A DNA stretch of 6,567 nt. It comes from a virus. Lineage: Duplodnaviria > Heunggongvirae > Uroviricota > Caudoviricetes. The stretch lies in IMG/VR virus record IMGVR_UViG_2681813316_000019, positions 1-6,567 of that record. One strand, written 5' to 3'. Shown here piece by piece: positions 1 to 6,567 of the stretch (position 1 is the stretch's first letter; each line of letters opens with the position of its first letter). The position numbers and the translations under genes were made by a program. Under the pieces are notes generated by a model. It did no database searches, was not told where the DNA came from, and was given only the letters and a program-made list of their open reading frames with translations.

Positions 1-140
1 CTATCGGCGAAGGTGAGTTGATGGCTCATGATGTCCCTCTGGGATGCGCTCCGGATGAATATGATGATCTCATATCAGGAACTTGTTCGCACCTTCCCTA
101 ACTAACACTACGTTTCACACAGCAATTACATGGAAATAAC

Positions 141-488
141 ATGACTATCAAAGCGACTGACATAGAGATTCTTCATCGTTATGCTGAAGGGGTAATGGAA
201 CGTTCTAACCATCATGCAAAAAATGTTGGTGCAGCCGCTCTTACATTGCTAGGAGGTGTTATCTGGAAAGCCCTGCCCGGATCAATCGAGATAAGAACGT
301 ATAACGGAAGTCTTGCAAATATGGTGTGGTGGCAAAGCGAAAGAACATTAAAAAATTATGCAATCTCATACAACCATAATTCATGTGAAATTGAAATGAG
401 AGATGAATCAGTCAAAAGTGCTGTATTATTTAGCATTTCCAACGAAACCACTCCAGAAAAAATATTATCACAGCTTTCTGAGCTTTAA
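141..488 (+). CDS. Hypothetical protein (115 aa), family not recognised; oriented opposite to the adjacent replication operon
   Basis: Intact ATG-initiated ORF 141..488 from the ORF track. Hand count of sample lines gives roughly 40% G+C against about 50% in P/O. No motif I can assign. Sits beyond the 3' end of P where lambda has ren/nin genes, but on the other strand. Confidence 0.45.
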   Translation: MTIKATDIEILHRYAEGVMERSNHHAKNVGAAALTLLGGVIWKALPGSIEIRTYNGSLANMVWWQSERTLKNYAISYNHNSCEIEMRDESVKSAVLFSISNETTPEKILSQLSEL

Positions 489-493
489 TTAAA

Positions 494-511
494 GGCGGTG
501 CTAACACCGCC
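494..511. terminator. GC-rich hairpin (GGCGGTG-CTAA-CACCGCC) between the convergent ORF 141..488 and gene P; possible bidirectional terminator
   Basis: Perfect 7-bp inverted repeat with 4-nt loop seen directly. On the minus strand it is followed by TTTAATTAAA (partly U-rich); on the plus strand the tail is not U-rich. Placed between two convergent genes. Confidence 0.35.
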
Positions 512-692
512 CATACCATTACTCCACATCTTACGCAACTTGATAATTATGCTCTATTAAATACCCACAATATTTCATCAATGCATGGGTCAGCTACAAA
601 ATGTTTACCGTGGTAATTCCTGTTTTCGCAACATCTCAAAAGAACAATAAACACTGTATTTCTTCAAGTAACGAAGAATCTTTCTTTGCCCG

Positions 693-1394
693 TCATACAC
701 TTGCTCCTTTCAGCCCAAACTTAGCTTTGATTTCTGCGATCTTCGCCAGAGCCTGTGCACGATTTAGAGGTCTACCGCCCATAACAGGAAGTTGTTTTAC
801 TGGTTCAGGTATCGTCTCACCACGGTTAATTCGCGCTGTCATACAGGTCAGTTCATCGGCAGCCTTGCGCCGTAATTCCGCGTCAGTCAGCGCATTGGCC
901 CGCATGTTCTGGTACAGGTTGGTAACCAGCCAGTAGTGCGCGTTTGATTTCCATGGATAAGACTCTGCATCCGGATAAAGGCCACGCTTCCGGCAATACT
1001 CGTAAACCATATCAACCAGCTCGCTGGCGTTTGGCAGCCCGGCGTTAACGGATGCTTCTTCCCGGCACCAGGCGACAAACTGCCCGGGTGATGGCAGGAA
1101 TGGTCGATTCTGCCGACGGGCTACGCGCATTCCTGCGTTAACCTGTTCCATTGTGGTGATCCCGTTTTCCCGGAAAGCCAGAACCCACTGGCGGCGGATT
1201 TCGTTCAGTTCGTTCTGGTCACGGTTAGCCAGGCTCGCCGGGAAAGTTGCCAGTAACTGGCTGAACACACCGTTGATGATCTGCGCTACCTGCTGTACCT
1301 GCGGCTTTTCGTCGTACTGTTCCGGCATGTTGTTGGCGATCCGGCGCATCTGCTCACGGTCAAAGTTAACCATCTGTGCGGCGATGTTTTTCAT
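693..1394 (-). CDS. P: Replication protein P (DnaB helicase loader), lambda-type
   Basis: 233-aa translation matches phage lambda P as I remember it almost residue for residue along its whole length (MKNIAAQMVNFDREQMRRIANNMPEQYDEKPQV...AKIAEIKAKFGLKGASV). ATG at 1392-1394 overlaps the TGA stop of the upstream O gene (ATGA). Confidence 0.95.
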   Translation of the reverse strand: MKNIAAQMVNFDREQMRRIANNMPEQYDEKPQVQQVAQIINGVFSQLLATFPASLANRDQNELNEIRRQWVLAFRENGITTMEQVNAGMRVARRQNRPFLPSPGQFVAWCREEASVNAGLPNASELVDMVYEYCRKRGLYPDAESYPWKSNAHYWLVTNLYQNMRANALTDAELRRKAADELTCMTARINRGETIPEPVKQLPVMGGRPLNRAQALAKIAEIKAKFGLKGASV

Positions 1395-2320
1395 AAATCC
1401 ACCCCGTAAATCCAGTCAGTGTTTGTCAGGTCGAGTTTTGATTTTCCGGTTGTCACGCCAGCCTGTTGCTTGTTACGGTTGATTTCGAGTTGGGTCCACT
1501 TGTCGCGGAGTTTGGCCGGACTCAGCACGTTACCGGACCAGAAGTTGTCCTGGCATGCCCAGCGGAACAGCACGCACATGTCGCGGTGGTTACGTCCGTC
1601 ACGTTCACGCATCAGGCGGATATCGTTAGCCCACCCTGCAAAATTCGGTTTTCTGGCTGATGGTGCGATGGTCTTCACCATGTCAAACATCCACTCTGCG
1701 GCGGTCAGGTCTTCTGCTGTCCCCCACTTGCTGCCGCTCTGAATCGCAGCATCCGGTTTCACCACAGGAAGGTCGTTTTCTGGCTGGTCAGAGTATTCGC
1801 CAGAATTCTCGGACGAATAAGGTTTTATATTGTCTTTTGTTAGTTTGTCTTTTGTGTTTACCTGATTCGGGTAAGTGCCTTTACCTGATTTGGGTAAACT
1901 TTTCTTACCTGATTCAGGTAAATTTACCTCTTTCAGGTAAACTTTATTTTTCTTACCTGATTCGGGTAATGTTGACCATTCACTGACCACATTATTAATG
2001 CCGATATTCCGCCCGCTCTGAATAAAAATCCCACGCTTTACCAGAACACTTTTTGCAGCAGAACACTTGTGCGGCAATATCCCGGTCAACTCGGAAAGTT
2101 GCTCGTTGCTCACCCAATCCAGTTTTTTATTAAAGCCATATGTTTTGCGCATGACAGCCAGGAAGACCAGAAGCTGGTGCTGTGTTAATCCGGCCAGCAT
2201 CACAGCTTCCAGCAACTCATTTGCAATGCGCGTATAACCATCATCGAGATCTGCCACGCGCGGCTCCTTTTGTGCCACATCCGGCACTGGAAAATTGAAT
2301 ATCTCAGCAGTGTTTGCCAT
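1391..2320 (-). CDS. O: Replication initiator protein O (origin-binding); C-terminal domain lambda-like, N-terminal DNA-binding region divergent
   Basis: C-terminal about 60 aa (RDMCVLFRWACQDNFWSGNVLSPAKLRDKWTQLEINRNKQQAGVT...LDLTNTDWIYGVDL) matches lambda O closely; the N-terminus MANTAEIFNF resembles lambda O MTNTAKILNF. Start chosen at the ATG at 2318-2320 because it is preceded by GGGAGGAATT (strong SD). The ORF-track extension to 2410 adds 30 residues with no RBS and would overlap the upstream gene. Iterons lie inside the coding region, as in lambda. Confidence 0.9.
   Translation of the reverse strand: MANTAEIFNFPVPDVAQKEPRVADLDDGYTRIANELLEAVMLAGLTQHQLLVFLAVMRKTYGFNKKLDWVSNEQLSELTGILPHKCSAAKSVLVKRGIFIQSGRNIGINNVVSEWSTLPESGKKNKVYLKEVNLPESGKKSLPKSGKGTYPNQVNTKDKLTKDNIKPYSSENSGEYSDQPENDLPVVKPDAAIQSGSKWGTAEDLTAAEWMFDMVKTIAPSARKPNFAGWANDIRLMRERDGRNHRDMCVLFRWACQDNFWSGNVLSPAKLRDKWTQLEINRNKQQAGVTTGKSKLDLTNTDWIYGVDL
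1858..1969. repeat. Origin of replication: five 17-bp iterons (consensus TTACCTGATTCGGGTAA, arms TTACC/GGTAA) inside gene O, with an AT-rich segment at about 1806-1857 on the O-downstream side
   Basis: Seen directly: copies start at 1858, 1881, 1905, 1924 and 1953, each an imperfect palindrome TTACC-N7-GGTAA. The flanking segment 1811-1860 is strongly A+T-rich. Architecture matches ori-lambda (iterons then AT-rich region within O), but the iteron sequence is not the lambda one. Confidence 0.8.
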
Positions 2321-2406
2321 AATTCCTCCCGCAATGAGTGCGTTACGATTTGCACCTGAAAGTCGGCTCTGTTCCCGCAGACCGGCTTTCGCCATTTCTG
2401 AGCCTG

Positions 2407-2952
2407 TCATATTGCCCCCAACATGGTGGTAACCATCGCCATCAATGGACCAGCCAGATCCGGGTCCACACGAAACATCGACACAATACCTTCACTAATT
2501 TCCTTCAGTTTCTGGTGGCGTGGTGCGTTGAGAATGACTGCCTGTTTTGCCTCACTGAGTTCCTTTTCCATTTCAGCCAACCTAGCCATGAAGCTATCCT
2601 GCTCAACCAGGTAACCGCGATATTCCAGCGGTAGTACCGCTAGAATTGCCGGGGTCAGTTCACGCACGTTATTTCGGTATTTTTCAGAATCGAATTTGTT
2701 ATCGAGGAAGCGGAACAGCTTCTGGCGTGCACGGCTGACATCATCAGGGAAATCGATGGCGCCGCCGCCCTGCTCCCGATACTCATTCACAATGAGTGTG
2801 GCAACGACATCCTGATTATCTTCAGCCGACCAGGCGCGGACGGCATCACGGATTTTTTCGTGGCCTGGCACCTGTTTTGTTTGAGAACGATTTATCACCG
2901 CAGTCGGGCTAAATCCGCTAGTCTGTTGGTATGTAAGTGGTTGCATAGTCAT
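2407..2952 (-). CDS. YdaT-like protein at the cII position (function uncertain)
   Basis: 181-aa ORF immediately downstream (24-bp gap) of the Cro-like gene and upstream of O. Segments NEYREQGGG and TPAILAVLPLEYR resemble the Rac-prophage YdaT family as I remember it, which is why I call it YdaT-like. True start may be the second ATG (2944-2946), which has better spacing to an AAGG. Confidence 0.55.
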   Translation of the reverse strand: MTMQPLTYQQTSGFSPTAVINRSQTKQVPGHEKIRDAVRAWSAEDNQDVVATLIVNEYREQGGGAIDFPDDVSRARQKLFRFLDNKFDSEKYRNNVRELTPAILAVLPLEYRGYLVEQDSFMARLAEMEKELSEAKQAVILNAPRHQKLKEISEGIVSMFRVDPDLAGPLMAMVTTMLGAI

Positions 2953-2976
2953 TGCCTTATCAGTTAACGCCGCAGT

Positions 2977-3204
2977 TTAGGCGGCAGAATTACTCGCGTT
3001 AAACAATGGTGCGAGGTCGGGACGAATATCTGCTGGTTTAATCTTTCCACCAGTGGCTGAGACAATTTTCATTACATAGCGGGCATCAATTCCGCCACCG
3101 TGTAGCCAACGCCAAACTGTGGGTTGGGCTACACCGCATAGATCTGCCAGTCGTTTTTGACTACCTGTAATACTGATTGCGAGTTGAATGGTTTGATTTG
3201 TCAT
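2977..3204 (-). CDS. Cro-like small HTH regulator (YdaS-like)
   Basis: 76 aa from the ATG at 3202-3204 (the ORF-track start at 3210 is a TTG). HTH segment GSQKRLADLCGVAQPTVWRW and the downstream IRPDL motif resemble YdaS/Cro-type regulators. Divergent from the repressor gene across a 110-bp operator region. AGGA lies 8 nt upstream. Confidence 0.75.
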   Translation of the reverse strand: MTNQTIQLAISITGSQKRLADLCGVAQPTVWRWLHGGGIDARYVMKIVSATGGKIKPADIRPDLAPLFNASNSAA

Positions 3205-3314
3205 TATCAATTCCTATTGGTATTGCAATGAATGAATAATAGCAATGCGTATTAATCCAAGTAATAGCAAAACGTGTTTTGACCATCAATACGCAAGCGT
3301 ATAAATTAAAACTT
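3205..3314. promoter_or_regulatory. Divergent immunity control region (OR-like): repeated operator motif TAATAGCAA(T) and candidate PR and PRM promoters
   Basis: TAATAGCAAT at 3237-3246 and TAATAGCAA at 3262-3270, plus a related palindromic ATTGCAAT at 3222-3229. Candidate PRM on plus strand: TTGAC(C) 3279-3284, about 16 bp, TATAAA 3300-3305, placing the transcription start at or just before the repressor ATG at 3315. Candidate PR on minus strand: TTGATG (plus coords 3284-3289), 17 bp, TATTAC (3261-3266). Promoter hexamers are by eye, not scored. Confidence 0.55.
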
Positions 3315-4007
3315 ATGAAAAAAGAAACTCTTGCTGATCGCTTAAACCTAGCGATGGAACAATCTGGAATGTCTCAAGGCGCTCTTGCAAAGGCGTCTGG
3401 CGTAGCTCAACCCACAATCTGGAGACTGACAAGCGGCAACGCGCGCGGCTCAACAAAAATTGTTGAAATAGCTAATGCATTGGGTGTTCGAACAGAATGG
3501 CTCTCATCAGGCATAGGCCCGATGAGAAATGACGGTCAACAATCAGGGAAGCCTGCTGTCAGCCATTCAAAATACTTCAAGATTGACGTTCTTGATATAG
3601 AAGTCAGTGCCGGGCCGGGTGTAATCAACCGTGAGTTTGTAGAAGTTCTACGCTCGGTTGAGTACTCGTTTGACGATGCTCGTCACATGTTCGATGGCAG
3701 GAAGGCGGAAAATATCCGCATCATTAACGTGCGTGGTGACAGCATGTCAGGAACGATCGAACCAGGTGATCTTCTGTTCGTTGATATCACGGTTAAATCT
3801 TTCGACGGTGATGGTATCTATGCGTTTCTGTATGACGACACAGCCCATGTAAAGCGCCTGCAAATGATGAAGGATAAGCTGCTGGTTATCTCTGATAACA
3901 AGAGCTACTCACCGTGGGACCCGATCGAGAAAGACGAGATGAACCGGGTATTCATCTTCGGGAAAGTCATCGGAAGCATGCCGCAGACGTATAGGAAGCA
4001 TGGGTAG
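3315..4007 (+). CDS. CI-type prophage repressor: N-terminal HTH_XRE domain plus C-terminal LexA-like S24 peptidase (autocleavable, SOS-inducible type)
   Basis: HTH MSQGALAKASGVAQPTIWRLTSG; candidate Ala-Gly cleavage site in EVSAGPGV; catalytic Ser motif VRGDSMSG and Lys in AHVKRL, as in LexA and lambda CI. Start set at the ATG at 3315 (MKKETL...); the ORF-track start at 3279 is a TTG. No SD precedes 3315. Confidence 0.85.
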   Translation: MKKETLADRLNLAMEQSGMSQGALAKASGVAQPTIWRLTSGNARGSTKIVEIANALGVRTEWLSSGIGPMRNDGQQSGKPAVSHSKYFKIDVLDIEVSAGPGVINREFVEVLRSVEYSFDDARHMFDGRKAENIRIINVRGDSMSGTIEPGDLLFVDITVKSFDGDGIYAFLYDDTAHVKRLQMMKDKLLVISDNKSYSPWDPIEKDEMNRVFIFGKVIGSMPQTYRKHG

Positions 4008-4118
4008 TGAAGGACGTGTCAACTCTATTTTGTAAGCTATCCAGACTCACAGTTGCAGATCGACGAGTAACTTACATACAGCACAAAAAAACAATATGCG
4101 AGTGCTTTTAGACTAGAC

Positions 4119-4133
4119 TTACCATAATGGTAA
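4119..4133. promoter_or_regulatory. 15-bp palindrome TTACCAT-A-ATGGTAA overlapping the first ATG of the toxin-like gene; candidate operator for the module
   Basis: Perfect 7-bp arms seen directly. Resembles the ACCT-N-AGGT type palindromes bound by MqsA-family antitoxins (from memory). Position at the 5' end of the three-gene module. Confidence 0.35.
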
Positions 4134-4537
4134 CAAGTATGATTCTTAGCAGATATGTGGGAACTCCTCCCCGTGATGGCGAGGACAGAAAGATTCAAGG
4201 TGGTCCGCTTTATTTAGATATCATTGATTTGATTGATGAATGTGACACACTGCCTTGGACTAAACGGTGTATCAGGGATGTTCAATCGCTTTCTTTAGAT
4301 GCAGATGACATCAAATCTATGGTGATAAAAGCAGTCACTAAAGGGAGATTTCTAGGTTCAGAATGGTGTCAAGGCAGTAAACCAGGTGTATGGGCAGCTT
4401 GTGATGCTTATAGCTTTGAGCACTCATTTTGGTGCCAAGCTATGCATAAAGAACTTAATAACGAGTTCTACATTAAATTTTTTGTAAACATTACTGGCAA
4501 TGTAGTGCTTACAGTATCTCTTCATCTCTCTAATTGA
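4127..4537 (+). CDS. MqsR-like toxin (RelE-superfamily mRNA interferase fold), putative toxin of a TAC module
   Basis: 136-aa ORF. C-terminal half (DDIKSMVIKAV...WCQAMHKELNNEFYIKFFVNITGNVVLTVSLHLSN) aligns by eye with E. coli MqsR (DFYKSMTT...YLKITVIHDVLIVSFKEK). Toxin-first gene order matches mqsR-mqsA. About 25 N-terminal residues are extra; an alternative start is ATG 4139. No clear SD. Confidence 0.55.
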   Translation: MVTSMILSRYVGTPPRDGEDRKIQGGPLYLDIIDLIDECDTLPWTKRCIRDVQSLSLDADDIKSMVIKAVTKGRFLGSEWCQGSKPGVWAACDAYSFEHSFWCQAMHKELNNEFYIKFFVNITGNVVLTVSLHLSN

Positions 4538-4561
4538 GTGATGATAAATGAGGATTTTTAT

Positions 4562-5149
4562 ATGAGAAACAACAACATATGTCCAGTTTGTGGTGTAGGT
4601 CATCTCACCGTGGAGATGGAGTATGATGATGTTACTTATAAAGGGGAAACAAAAAATCTCCCAATAAGGTTTTCTGTGTGTGATCAATGTGGTTCGGAAA
4701 CTGCCACACCAGTCGATTTACGAGAAAACAAACGAATTTTCAATGAATACAAAAAGTCTATCGATGGACTTTTAACAGGAAAAGAATTAAAAAAAATTAG
4801 AACTGAAGTATGGATGATAACCCAGCAAAAGGCATCCTCTATATTTGGTGGGGGGCCTAAGGCATTTTCCAAGTATGAATCTGATGATGTCATTCAATCA
4901 GAAGCAATGGATAAACTGATGCGTTTAGCAGCAGAAGTTCCTGATGCATTCAAAAGGTTACGGGAATTATCTGGCGAAATCAAAGTTGAAAGAACAGTCT
5001 CATCATCTAAATCTTTACCTATATGGAAATCTGAAGCAAAAGCACAATTTGAAAACGATGATCAGGGATTTGACAGCAAATCACCAGCCCAAACAAAAAT
5101 GAATCAAACATCAATAAAGATAAAAACTGTTGCTAAGCGGGTAGCATGA
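4562..5149 (+). CDS. MqsA-like antitoxin: N-terminal zinc ribbon (CPVC...CDQC) plus HTH_XRE domain, with a C-terminal extension of about 55-60 aa
   Basis: ICPVCGVGH...CDQCGSE resembles the MqsA Zn-binding domain (MKCPVCHQGE...YCVHCEE). ITQQKASSIFGGGPKAFSKYESDD matches the MqsA HTH region LTQKEASEIFGGGVNAFSRYEKGN. Start placed at ATG 4562, preceded by GAGGA with a 7-nt spacer; the ORF-track start at 4538 is GTG. The protein is about 65 aa longer than E. coli MqsA, mostly at the C-terminus. Confidence 0.75.
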   Translation: MRNNNICPVCGVGHLTVEMEYDDVTYKGETKNLPIRFSVCDQCGSETATPVDLRENKRIFNEYKKSIDGLLTGKELKKIRTEVWMITQQKASSIFGGGPKAFSKYESDDVIQSEAMDKLMRLAAEVPDAFKRLRELSGEIKVERTVSSSKSLPIWKSEAKAQFENDDQGFDSKSPAQTKMNQTSIKIKTVAKRVA

Positions 5150-5649
5150 TGAATGAACTTCTTAGATCAGCAATAGACGCATTATCAATAATGCATATCA
5201 ATATCAGAGAATCTAACTTTGCTTTTTCTGAAGGGTATAATAGCTTTAACTTCAACAGCATAAATAAGCAAACACAATCATTTCGTAAGATAAAAAAAAT
5301 CGAAGCTATTGAATTAGTAAGTGACGATGACTCATTAAAAAATGAGCTATATTACTCTTTTCACTACTCAGTTGGGCTTAGATTTATTGCAAAATCCGAA
5401 GAAACATCTAAAGACGAAAATGATGTTGATACAATTTTTTCTATAGAAGCAATTTTTGAGGCGATATATCGCTCAAAAAGAGAATTATCTAAAGAAGAGT
5501 TAGAAGAATTTGCTAAGCAAAATGTAGGTTTTAATGTATGGCCTTTTTGGCGAGAGTATGTTCAAAACAGCACATCCAGAATGGGAATTACTACAATAGC
5601 TATACCATTCTTTAAATTCAATAAATCAGACATACCTTCATTAGATTAA
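5146..5649 (+). CDS. SecB-like chaperone, putative third component of a TAC module
   Basis: 167 aa. C-terminal segment FNVWPFWREYVQNSTSRMGITTIAIPFFKF matches the conserved SecB segment [34 protein letters not shown]; IFSI and an acidic central region also align. Start ATG overlaps the antitoxin stop (ATGA at 5146-5149), suggesting translational coupling. Hand-counted G+C on one sample line is about one third. Confidence 0.6.
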   Translation: MMNELLRSAIDALSIMHINIRESNFAFSEGYNSFNFNSINKQTQSFRKIKKIEAIELVSDDDSLKNELYYSFHYSVGLRFIAKSEETSKDENDVDTIFSIEAIFEAIYRSKRELSKEELEEFAKQNVGFNVWPFWREYVQNSTSRMGITTIAIPFFKFNKSDIPSLD

Positions 5650-5663
5650 ATTCAAATATAACT

Positions 5664-5690
5664 CCCGGCTACCGTGCCGGGTTTTCTTTT
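5664..5690 (+). terminator. Rho-independent terminator ending the repressor-side operon (t_imm equivalent)
   Basis: CCCGGC-TACCGT-GCCGGG hairpin (6-bp GC stem) followed directly by TTTTCTTTT, 15 bp after the stop of the SecB-like gene. Confidence 0.8.
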
Positions 5691-5780
5691 GTCCCCTCCC
5701 CTCATCACACACCGTTCAAAAAACCACCACGACCTCACTTCAGTTATCGCTATGCGATGCAAGTCACAAAATTAATTCTT

Positions 5781-5860
5781 TTTGCTATCAAACATTTAAT
5801 ATCAAAACACATCAACTAATAGCAATAAGTATTGATATCACCAATAGCAATAGCTATTAT
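5781..5860 (+). promoter_or_regulatory. OL/PL-like region: operator motif copies shared with the OR region, overlapping a candidate sigma70 promoter for the leftward early operon
   Basis: TAATAGCAAT at 5817-5826 (exact 10-mer also at 3237-3246), AATAGCAAT at 5843-5851 adjoining palindrome AATAGCTATT (5849-5858), and reverse-oriented TTTGCTAT at 5781-5788. Candidate promoter: TTGATA 5832-5837, 17-bp spacer, TATTAT 5855-5860, with operator copies in the spacer. Confidence 0.55.
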
Positions 5861-6137
5861 CACCATATCGCAACAACACAACGATACGGCAACCACCTGA
5901 TTCACCGTTGCGATGACCGCTTAGATCCGCAGCTTGAATTTCAGCAGGCTTCGGGGAGTGCGAGGGATGAAACGGACGCGTGAACGTCGGTGTGACCAGC
6001 TGAAATCAACTCAACATTTCATACCTTAGTCGCTTCAACGAGGCGGCTTAGTTATGACAACCGGCGGCCATCCACCGCCTGAATACGCGCAGAAGTCTTT
6101 ATATGTTCAGCAGCCCAGCTTACGGGCAGGAGTTTTT

Positions 6138-6344
6138 ATGGTTCATCAACATTACGGAACGCAGACCGTTAATCGCGGTGCGGTCATGCCAGGAATGCTG
6201 GTCAAACGCAAAGATGGTACCTGGACTGCATCAGCTAATTTACGCGGACGACTTTATCTGCATCGCGGCATTGAGCGCACTTATACCCGTGACTTGCTCG
6301 TGGAAGTTTTTCTCGACGGACGCGGTAACGGCCTCAATCACTAA
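6138..6344 (+). CDS. Hypothetical small early protein (68 aa from ATG 6138), upstream of gam
   Basis: ATG 6138 is preceded by AGGAG with a 5-nt spacer. The frame is open back to 6030 (ORF track starts it at ATG 6054, 96 aa). Composition looks protein-like. No family recognised. Confidence 0.35.
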
Positions 6345-6419
6345 TCCCCTTTCCTGTTTTCCTAATCAGCCTGGCATTTCGCGGGCGATATTTTCACAGC
6401 CATTTTCAGGAGTTCAGCC

Positions 6420-6567
6420 ATGAACGCTTATTACATTCAGGATCGTCTTGAGGCTCAGAGCTGGGCGCGTCACTACCAGCAGATCGCCCGTGAAGAGAAA
6501 GAGGCAGAACTGGCAGACGACATGGAAAAAGGCCTGCCCCAGCACCTGTTTGAATCGCTATGCATCG
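6420..6567 (+). CDS. gam: Host-nuclease (RecBCD) inhibitor Gam, 5' portion only (continues past window end)
   Basis: Translation [49 protein letters not shown] matches the lambda Gam (GamS form) N-terminus as I remember it, with one conservative difference. AGGAG lies 7 nt upstream of the ATG. The window ends at 6567 inside the gene. Confidence 0.9.

Follow-up and report, generated by a model that had tools for sequence, protein, structure and literature searches.

The early region described here raises the question of how transcription proceeds from a lambdoid pR promoter when the genes that follow it are packed so closely that no space seems to be left for an N-utilisation site and a terminator, and of what such packing says about N on the opposite arm. 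The window, by which we mean the whole 6,567-nucleotide stretch that was analysed (positions 1 to 6,567 of the Caudoviricetes record IMGVR_UViG_2681813316_000019), comes from a lambdoid prophage, of which it spans the immunity and early region; its pR operon is on the minus strand. We consider it probable, at roughly 0.8, that these genes form the early-right operon of a lambdoid immunity module of the phi80 type, carried by an N-less phage lineage. This reading draws on the identities of the genes, on the missing boxA, intrinsic terminators, rut-like C-rich RNA, put elements and N gene, and on the occurrence of the same architecture in sequenced phages. Listed along the path of the pR transcript, the features of the operon are:

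3205-3290, no strand assigned: oR operator with divergent promoters, pR leftward and pRM rightward in window coordinates, recognised by likeness to oL
2977-3204, minus strand: cro-like repressor gene of the YdaS family, 75 aa (PF15943, E 1e-14; phrog_35)
2969-2985, minus strand: GC hairpin GCCGC-CUAAACU-GCGGC of the junction cassette, whose loop contains the cro stop codon (2977-2979)
2953-2976, minus strand: cro-cII junction, 24 nt (30 nt if cII starts at 2946), with a Shine-Dalgarno (SD) sequence AAGG at 2955-2958
2407-2952, minus strand: phi80-type cII gene (YdaT family), 179-181 aa (PF06254, phrog_163)
2321-2406, no strand assigned: cII-O spacer, 86 nt, with the true start of O at 2320
2331-2402, plus strand: predicted oop/M3-like antisense RNA of ~70 nt, a hairpin with a weak U tail, proposed from fold, position and promoter, with approximate ends
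2295-2323, plus strand: pO-like promoter TTGAAT-17 nt-CATAAT, from a promoter scan, with TG before the -10
1391-2320, minus strand: replication initiator O, 309 aa (PF04492, E 8.5e-34; aligned with lambda O)
1853-1969, within O: five ori iterons of the TTACCTGATTCGGGTAA type
693-1394, minus strand: helicase loader P (PF06992, E 7.6e-62)

The gene that follows cro encodes a member of the YdaT family, as had been proposed from the sequence alone and as a profile search confirms: the match to YdaT_toxin (PF06254) spans residues 69-156 with an E-value of 9.7e-30 and 103 bits against a gathering cut-off of 21. The protein also matches phrog_163, a family described as "CII-like activator", at an E-value of 4e-67, and is 66.7% identical over its residues 3-181 to the genetically defined CII of phi80 and 52% identical to CII of HK639. 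A match to the crystal structure of YdaT from CP-933P (PDB 8BT1), in which a POU-like HTH domain precedes a tetramerising helix, is confined to residues 30-108, with an E-value of 0.0017, and a single-sequence AlphaFold model of the YdaT-type CII reached a pLDDT of 38, too low to use. The gene directly follows the YdaS/Cro-type gene, is itself followed by the replication genes, and runs divergently from the repressor gene; it is placed in the same way in phi80, HK639 and the 49 loci surveyed below. YdaS and YdaT have been described as Cro and CII equivalents, with YdaT of CP-933P binding an inverted repeat at the ydaS/ydaT junction and activating a PRE-like promoter, PRE933P (PMC8630535, PMC9986795). 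With 67% identity to phi80 CII and CP-933P YdaT established as a CII equivalent, the earlier description of this protein as one of unknown role is outdated (PMC8630535, PMC9986795). Neither a PRE-like promoter nor a YdaT operator was located in the window, and a scan of the window, phi80 and HK639 for an inverted repeat that could serve as the operator returned the GC hairpin as the only repeat in common.

We also considered whether the protein might be a diverged lambda CII and rejected this idea. No match to PF05269 was found at E-values up to 0.01, the hhalign probability against lambda CII was 0.3%, and the two proteins belong to separate PHROGs, phrog_191 for lambda CII and phrog_163 for the protein in the window. 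Judged by these profile comparisons, the YdaT-type protein is best described as an analogue of lambda CII and not as a detectable homologue.

The cro gene runs from an ATG at 3204 to a TAA stop codon at 2979-2977, and its product, 58% identical to Cro of HK639, has the same length of 75 aa in the annotation of Perceval and 4A7. The gene calls bear out the 24 bp that the sequence-only reading gave for the distance between the cro-like and YdaT-like genes; a second in-frame ATG of cII at 2946 has better SD spacing, corresponds to the RefSeq start in 4A7, and makes the distance 30 nt. The gap of about 250 bp quoted for lambda was too large, as the actual lambda cro-cII gap is 118 bp (38242-38359). 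That reading also held that nutR and tR1 have no place between the two genes, and every search agreed with it. Between 3210 and 690 the pR (minus) strand has no terminator-like hairpin of the intrinsic kind, and boxA (GCTCTTTA, with at most one mismatch) is absent from the minus strand between 690 and 3210 and from the plus strand after 5867. Neither a terminator nor a nut element was found inside the YdaT-like coding region, where they could have been concealed. A scan of the early transcripts for the phi80 nutL core gave no match, and the best local alignment between the pL leader and the pR transcript, which would reveal an element common to both, scored 21 against a shuffle mean of 21.2. 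A search of the whole window against Rfam at E-values up to 1 returned only a match to mir-26, which we rejected as spurious, since it falls on the ori iterons.

Sites for Rho and for put-type antitermination were sought in the same way. In the lambda pR transcript, the strongest window of C over G is the cro-cII gap, that is, the rut/tR1 region. No rut-like C-over-G stretch occurs in the untranslated pR RNA of the window, where both the junction and the spacer have at least as much G as C, and the top C-rich windows fall inside the translated O gene; as this is a reading of sequence only, Rho-dependent termination may still occur. For put RNA, a profile built from 31 distinct put cores collected from viral contigs recovered the controls HK022 putL, HK022 putR and HK639 putL at E-values that ran from 7e-22 through 3e-17 to 7e-13. 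The same profile detected no put RNA in the window (best E-value 21), gave E-values of 4.5 or worse for 4A7, Perceval and PhiR70_1, and found nothing in 22 kb of 4A7 nor in phi80.

The junction contains only the GC hairpin and a ribosome-binding site. The hairpin, which is present in the minimum free energy (MFE) structure, is found once where 0.01 matches are expected by chance, and the cassette is kept in phi80, HK639 and ~20 enterobacterial prophages despite their differing cro genes. Other instances lie at 4962-4978 of locus L005 and at about 12310-12326 of locus L004, the loop length varies from 5 to 8 nt, and in most other members the hairpin (GCCGC, 5-8 nt, GCGGC) is followed by CTAACCACGAAAGGGAAAGCAATG. 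It is missing from many YdaT-type loci, including L216, L218, L262 and all of those with gaps of 2-11 nt, and a covariation test was uninformative because the stems are invariant. Since the cro C-termini beside the cassette are unrelated to one another, the cassette may mark a module boundary or act on translation or on mRNA stability.

Downstream of cII, the proposal that ydaT is fused to O-P does not hold. The 339-aa ORF of O extends too far upstream: the alignment with lambda O begins at its Met31, which is the ATG at 2320 and is preceded by the SD sequence GGGAGG. The 86-nt spacer between cII and O carries an oop/M3-like unit. Its pO-like promoter has a -10 element that overlaps the start codon of O, like lambda pO, and aligns with the pO promoters of lambda, phi80 and HK639. 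The predicted oop-like RNA has positional and promoter homology to lambda oop and to the annotated M3 RNA of phi80 and HK639, and folds with an MFE of -25.9 kcal/mol (z -2.7). The spacer has room for a nut site, yet it appears to be filled by the oop-like unit and to lack one. In the records of PhiR70_1, Perceval, 4A7 and IdasGreatGrand the annotated O begins 30 codons too early, and this over-extension hides the oop-like RNA locus. The iterons at 1853-1969 make the origin unlike that of lambda, in keeping with the divergent N-terminal half of O.

On the opposite arm, the features that bear on the presence of N are:

3315-4007, plus strand: cI-type repressor gene with HTH and S24 peptidase domains (PF00717, E 1.5e-18; PF01381), annotated as a 693-bp CDS in related phages
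4127-5649, plus strand: three-gene insert that separates cI from oL, where lambda has rexAB
5770-5866, plus strand: oL operators and pL, with -35 TTGATA at 5832 and -10 TATTAT ending at 5860, from a promoter scan and operator repeats in common with oR
5867-6137, plus strand: pL leader of ~270 nt without an N gene, holding an arginine-rich 20-codon frame at 5967-6029
6138-6344, plus strand: kil, 68 aa, with which the conserved genes of the pL operon begin (phrog_294, E 1.4e-37; NF008465, residues 1-68)

The two operator regions resemble each other, with a 72% match between the 50 nt at 3237-3286 in oR and 5817-5866 in oL and with sites of the AATAGCAAT...TATT type repeated in both, and pL is the top promoter match of the window, at 10/12 in the promoter scan. 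Between pL (about 5832-5860) and kil (6138) there is no N gene. The arginine-rich frame at 5967-6029 (MKRTRERRCDQLKSTQHFIP, MKRTRERR...) is positioned where N would start and is presumably the frame that the sequence-only reading called N-like. In a comparison of 38 leader variants drawn from 74 related loci, GTG replaces ATG in 36 of the 38, the ATG being found only in the window and one other variant; the TAG stop codon is changed to CAG in about half of them; and indels of 1, 2 and 5 nt occur. With its start, stop and reading frame all variable and with no N-like profile match among the PHROGs, the frame was rejected as an N gene. Compared as DNA and by profile, the leader as a whole resembles no known N gene. 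When lambda N, phi80 N and HK022 Nun were used as the queries, tblastn found none of these three N/Nun types in 80 close relatives (flanks of up to 8 kb), and no N is annotated in the four early regions inspected, those of PhiR70_1, Perceval, 4A7 and IdasGreatGrand. Nor does the leader behave as a structured RNA: its fold has a z of -0.9 against shuffles, and its linked substitutions are not compensatory and give no covariation.

The start of kil is probably at 6138, as judged from the extent of the conserved protein, and 4A7 annotates kil as a 207-bp CDS; the start of gam follows kil within the window, also on the plus strand. The mini-frame at 5967-6029 is in frame with an extended kil ORF (6054-6344), and in Perceval the TAG-to-CAG change merges both into an annotated 139-aa "Kil", of which the conserved Kil is the last 68 aa.

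The window is not an isolated case. The region is ~95-99% identical, where aligned, in 16 phage genome records, among them PhiR70_1, 4A7 and Perceval (genus Bievrevirus), and several of the 16 list a laboratory strain, E. coli C or K-12 MG1655, as host. The cII gene and layout of the window occur in these 16 records and in 451 viral contigs. To place the junction in a wider context we surveyed 49 diverse YdaT-type loci, comprising one genome per bacterial species plus reference phages. The cro-cII gap measures 2-38 nt in 45 of the 49, and the only loci with boxA inside the gap are three in which it is long (52, 104 and 122 nt). One of them, the enterobacterial prophage locus L226, combines a YdaT-type cII with an exact lambda nutR (CGCTCTTA...GCCCTGAAAAAGGGC) in its 122-nt gap (5878-6001), and its left arm carries a lambda N gene of 88% identity (2626-2991). 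On the left arms of the surveyed loci, a phi80-type boxA is present in about a dozen, put in four, and neither in the rest.

These comparisons bear on the proposal that the short junction fits poorly with an N-dependent circuit. In the surveyed sequences a nut site does need an enlarged gap, which supports the reasoning of the sequence-only reading, and a circuit without N is indicated by the lack of an N gene and by an N-like frame that is not conserved. However, phi80 has N together with a 30-nt gap, and gaps of 2-38 nt are found in 45 of the 49 loci, so that the short junction is in itself no evidence against N. The tight junction is the default of the module and alone says nothing about N on the other arm. 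It is the ancestral state of the module and not a recent fusion.

The arrangement is already known, being a phi80-type layout that is present in annotated phage genomes. Phi80 has the order gene 30/cro, cII, M3 RNA, gene 15 and gene 14, with a cro-cII gap of 30 nt, a GCCGCC-N5-GGCGGC hairpin over the cro stop codon, an oop-like M3 RNA between cII and the O homologue, a pO -10 element over the O start codon, and a right arm without an annotated nutR; a literature search for a phi80 nutR returned nothing relevant. In contrast to the window, the left arm of phi80 has N, nutL (boxA TGCTTTTTA plus core) and tL1, and the O-P genes of the window are of the lambda type, with iterons of their own. HK639 resembles the window in its Cro (58% identical) and CII (52% identical), in a 29-nt gap with the same hairpin, in an M3-like RNA after cII, and in having no N gene, but it carries a putL-type antiterminator RNA after pL, whereas the window and its close relatives have no put match. 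The ydaS-ydaT pairs of CP-933P and Rac, cryptic prophages of E. coli O157:H7 and K-12, belong to the same Pfam families and occupy the same position between repressor and replication genes. However, their sequences are distant, as the limited 8BT1 match noted above shows, the operator described in the literature (TTGATT-N6-AATCAA) does not occur at the junction of the window, and those prophages are defective whereas the module in the window occurs in sequenced phage genomes. Lambda itself is built on the same logic, with a repressor, Cro, CII, oop RNA and O-P, and P and the C-terminal two thirds of O are nearly identical. It differs in a C-rich gap of 118 bp that holds boxA, boxB and rut sites, in having an N gene, and in its CII (phrog_191, PF05269), which is unrelated by profile to the protein in the window.

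We propose that the pR transcript would read, in order, cro (YdaS), the 24-30-nt junction, the phi80-type cII, the 86-nt spacer with its antisense RNA gene, O and P. Because nothing was found to stop it between pR and P, unmodified polymerase would be expected to reach P and to make cII, O and P once repression is lifted, with no N-gated delayed-early step on either arm. The YdaT-type CII would decide between lysis and lysogeny by activating a leftward promoter of the PRE type close to the cro/cII junction, in the way established for YdaT of CP-933P, and the oop-like RNA may modulate this decision.

The path beyond P provides the main counterpoint. In 4A7 (locus L007), a phage without N and without put, the pR strand between P and Q holds terminator-like hairpins at 12590-12615, 14664-14685 and 16120-16143, and a convergent esterase gene also lies in this interval. 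Because the route from P to Q crosses these elements, some antitermination or a separate Q promoter may exist, although none was found. Transcription of O and P could accordingly be unassisted while Q is reached by an undescribed mechanism outside the junction, candidates for which are rrn-type antitermination by host Nus factors, a new RNA made within the pL leader of 270 nt, or a promoter that serves the Q cluster separately. Besides the hairpins of 4A7, a sister immunity type speaks for this idea. Its cII and pL leader are the same as in the window, but its cI, cro and operators differ, and it occurs in 45 of the 80 close relatives (45 loci among L129-L207) and in six sequenced phages. Its cro-cII gap is an unstructured 69 nt (5432-5500 in locus L264) with a perfect rrn-type boxA (GCTCTTTAACAA), one copy per locus, and without a boxB hairpin, and this immunity type has no N gene. 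However, the immunity type of the window is without any boxA, and the leader that might supply a new RNA folds no better than its shuffled counterparts and lacks covariation. We therefore give this alternative an outside chance. Slightly more speculative is the stronger statement that the lineage as a whole (4A7, Perceval and PhiR-type phages, with the 451 viral contigs) may use an undescribed early antitermination route to Q. It follows from the same observation, that without N and put the pR transcript must still cross terminator-like hairpins and a convergent gene. The route might be a lone boxA that brings in the rrn-type Nus complex of the host, a candidate suggested by the sister immunity type, or a new cis element such as the GC hairpin cassette at the stop codon.

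The last of these candidates leads to the proposal that the junction cassette is a cryptic antitermination site, acting as a boxB-like target of some phage factor not yet recognised or as a cis-acting RNA by which polymerase is modified, and that the pR operon is antiterminated after all. The hairpin is far from chance (0.01 expected), occupies the position of nutR in lambda, is kept beside different cro genes in phi80, HK639 and ~20 prophages, and is replaced at the same position by unrelated hairpins in loci L247 and L237; the terminator-like sites between P and Q in 4A7 also speak for the proposal. However, no boxA accompanies it, no similar element follows pL, and its invariant stems lend no covariation support. 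Its 5' arm consists of the Ala-Ala-stop codons of cro, so that terminating ribosomes would melt the structure. It is also absent from many YdaT-type loci, and is retained both in a phage that has N (phi80) and in one that has put (HK639). Taken with these points, an antitermination role for the cassette seems quite improbable. Recent deletion of N and nutR from a prophage in decay, which would make the arrangement a defect, could account for an arginine-rich frame (MKRTRERR...) where N would start and for a left 682 bp that is unlike all sequenced phages and includes a convergent cassette gene. Such decay is very improbable, given that 16 phage genome records have this leader and junction and the genes in this order, that the leader resembles no known N gene as DNA or by profile, and that phi80 and HK639 have the short junction too.

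With the region read as the early-right operon of a phi80-type module in an N-less lineage, its main bearing is on annotation. YdaT-family genes beside cro are labelled "toxin" in RefSeq, yet they are phi80-type cII lysogeny regulators, and a tight cro-cII junction should not be counted as gene loss. The survey adds that the antitermination device of this module family (N/nutL, put, or none) is placed on the left arm, and that the right operon is usually without one unless the cro-cII gap is enlarged.

Two parts of the window are particular to this prophage or vary among its relatives. The insert between cI and oL encodes a 136-aa protein without a family match, an antitoxin of the MqsA family (TIGR03830, E 6.9e-33) and a protein of 167 aa that weakly matches SecB (E 0.008), and is closed by a terminator at 5664-5690. 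The whole (4127-5690) looks like a toxin-antitoxin-chaperone cassette, and the cargo at this position differs among phages of the same immunity. Downstream of P, positions 1-692 are unlike every sequenced phage; the left 682 bp, which differ from all of them, contain a convergent gene at 141-488 on the plus strand that replaces ren and belongs to VCH_CASS14, a family of integron cassettes (PF18315, E 3.8e-19). At ~489-512 lies a hairpin that is followed by UUUAAUUAAA on the pR strand, and pR transcripts in this particular prophage could, from the look of this element, stop there.
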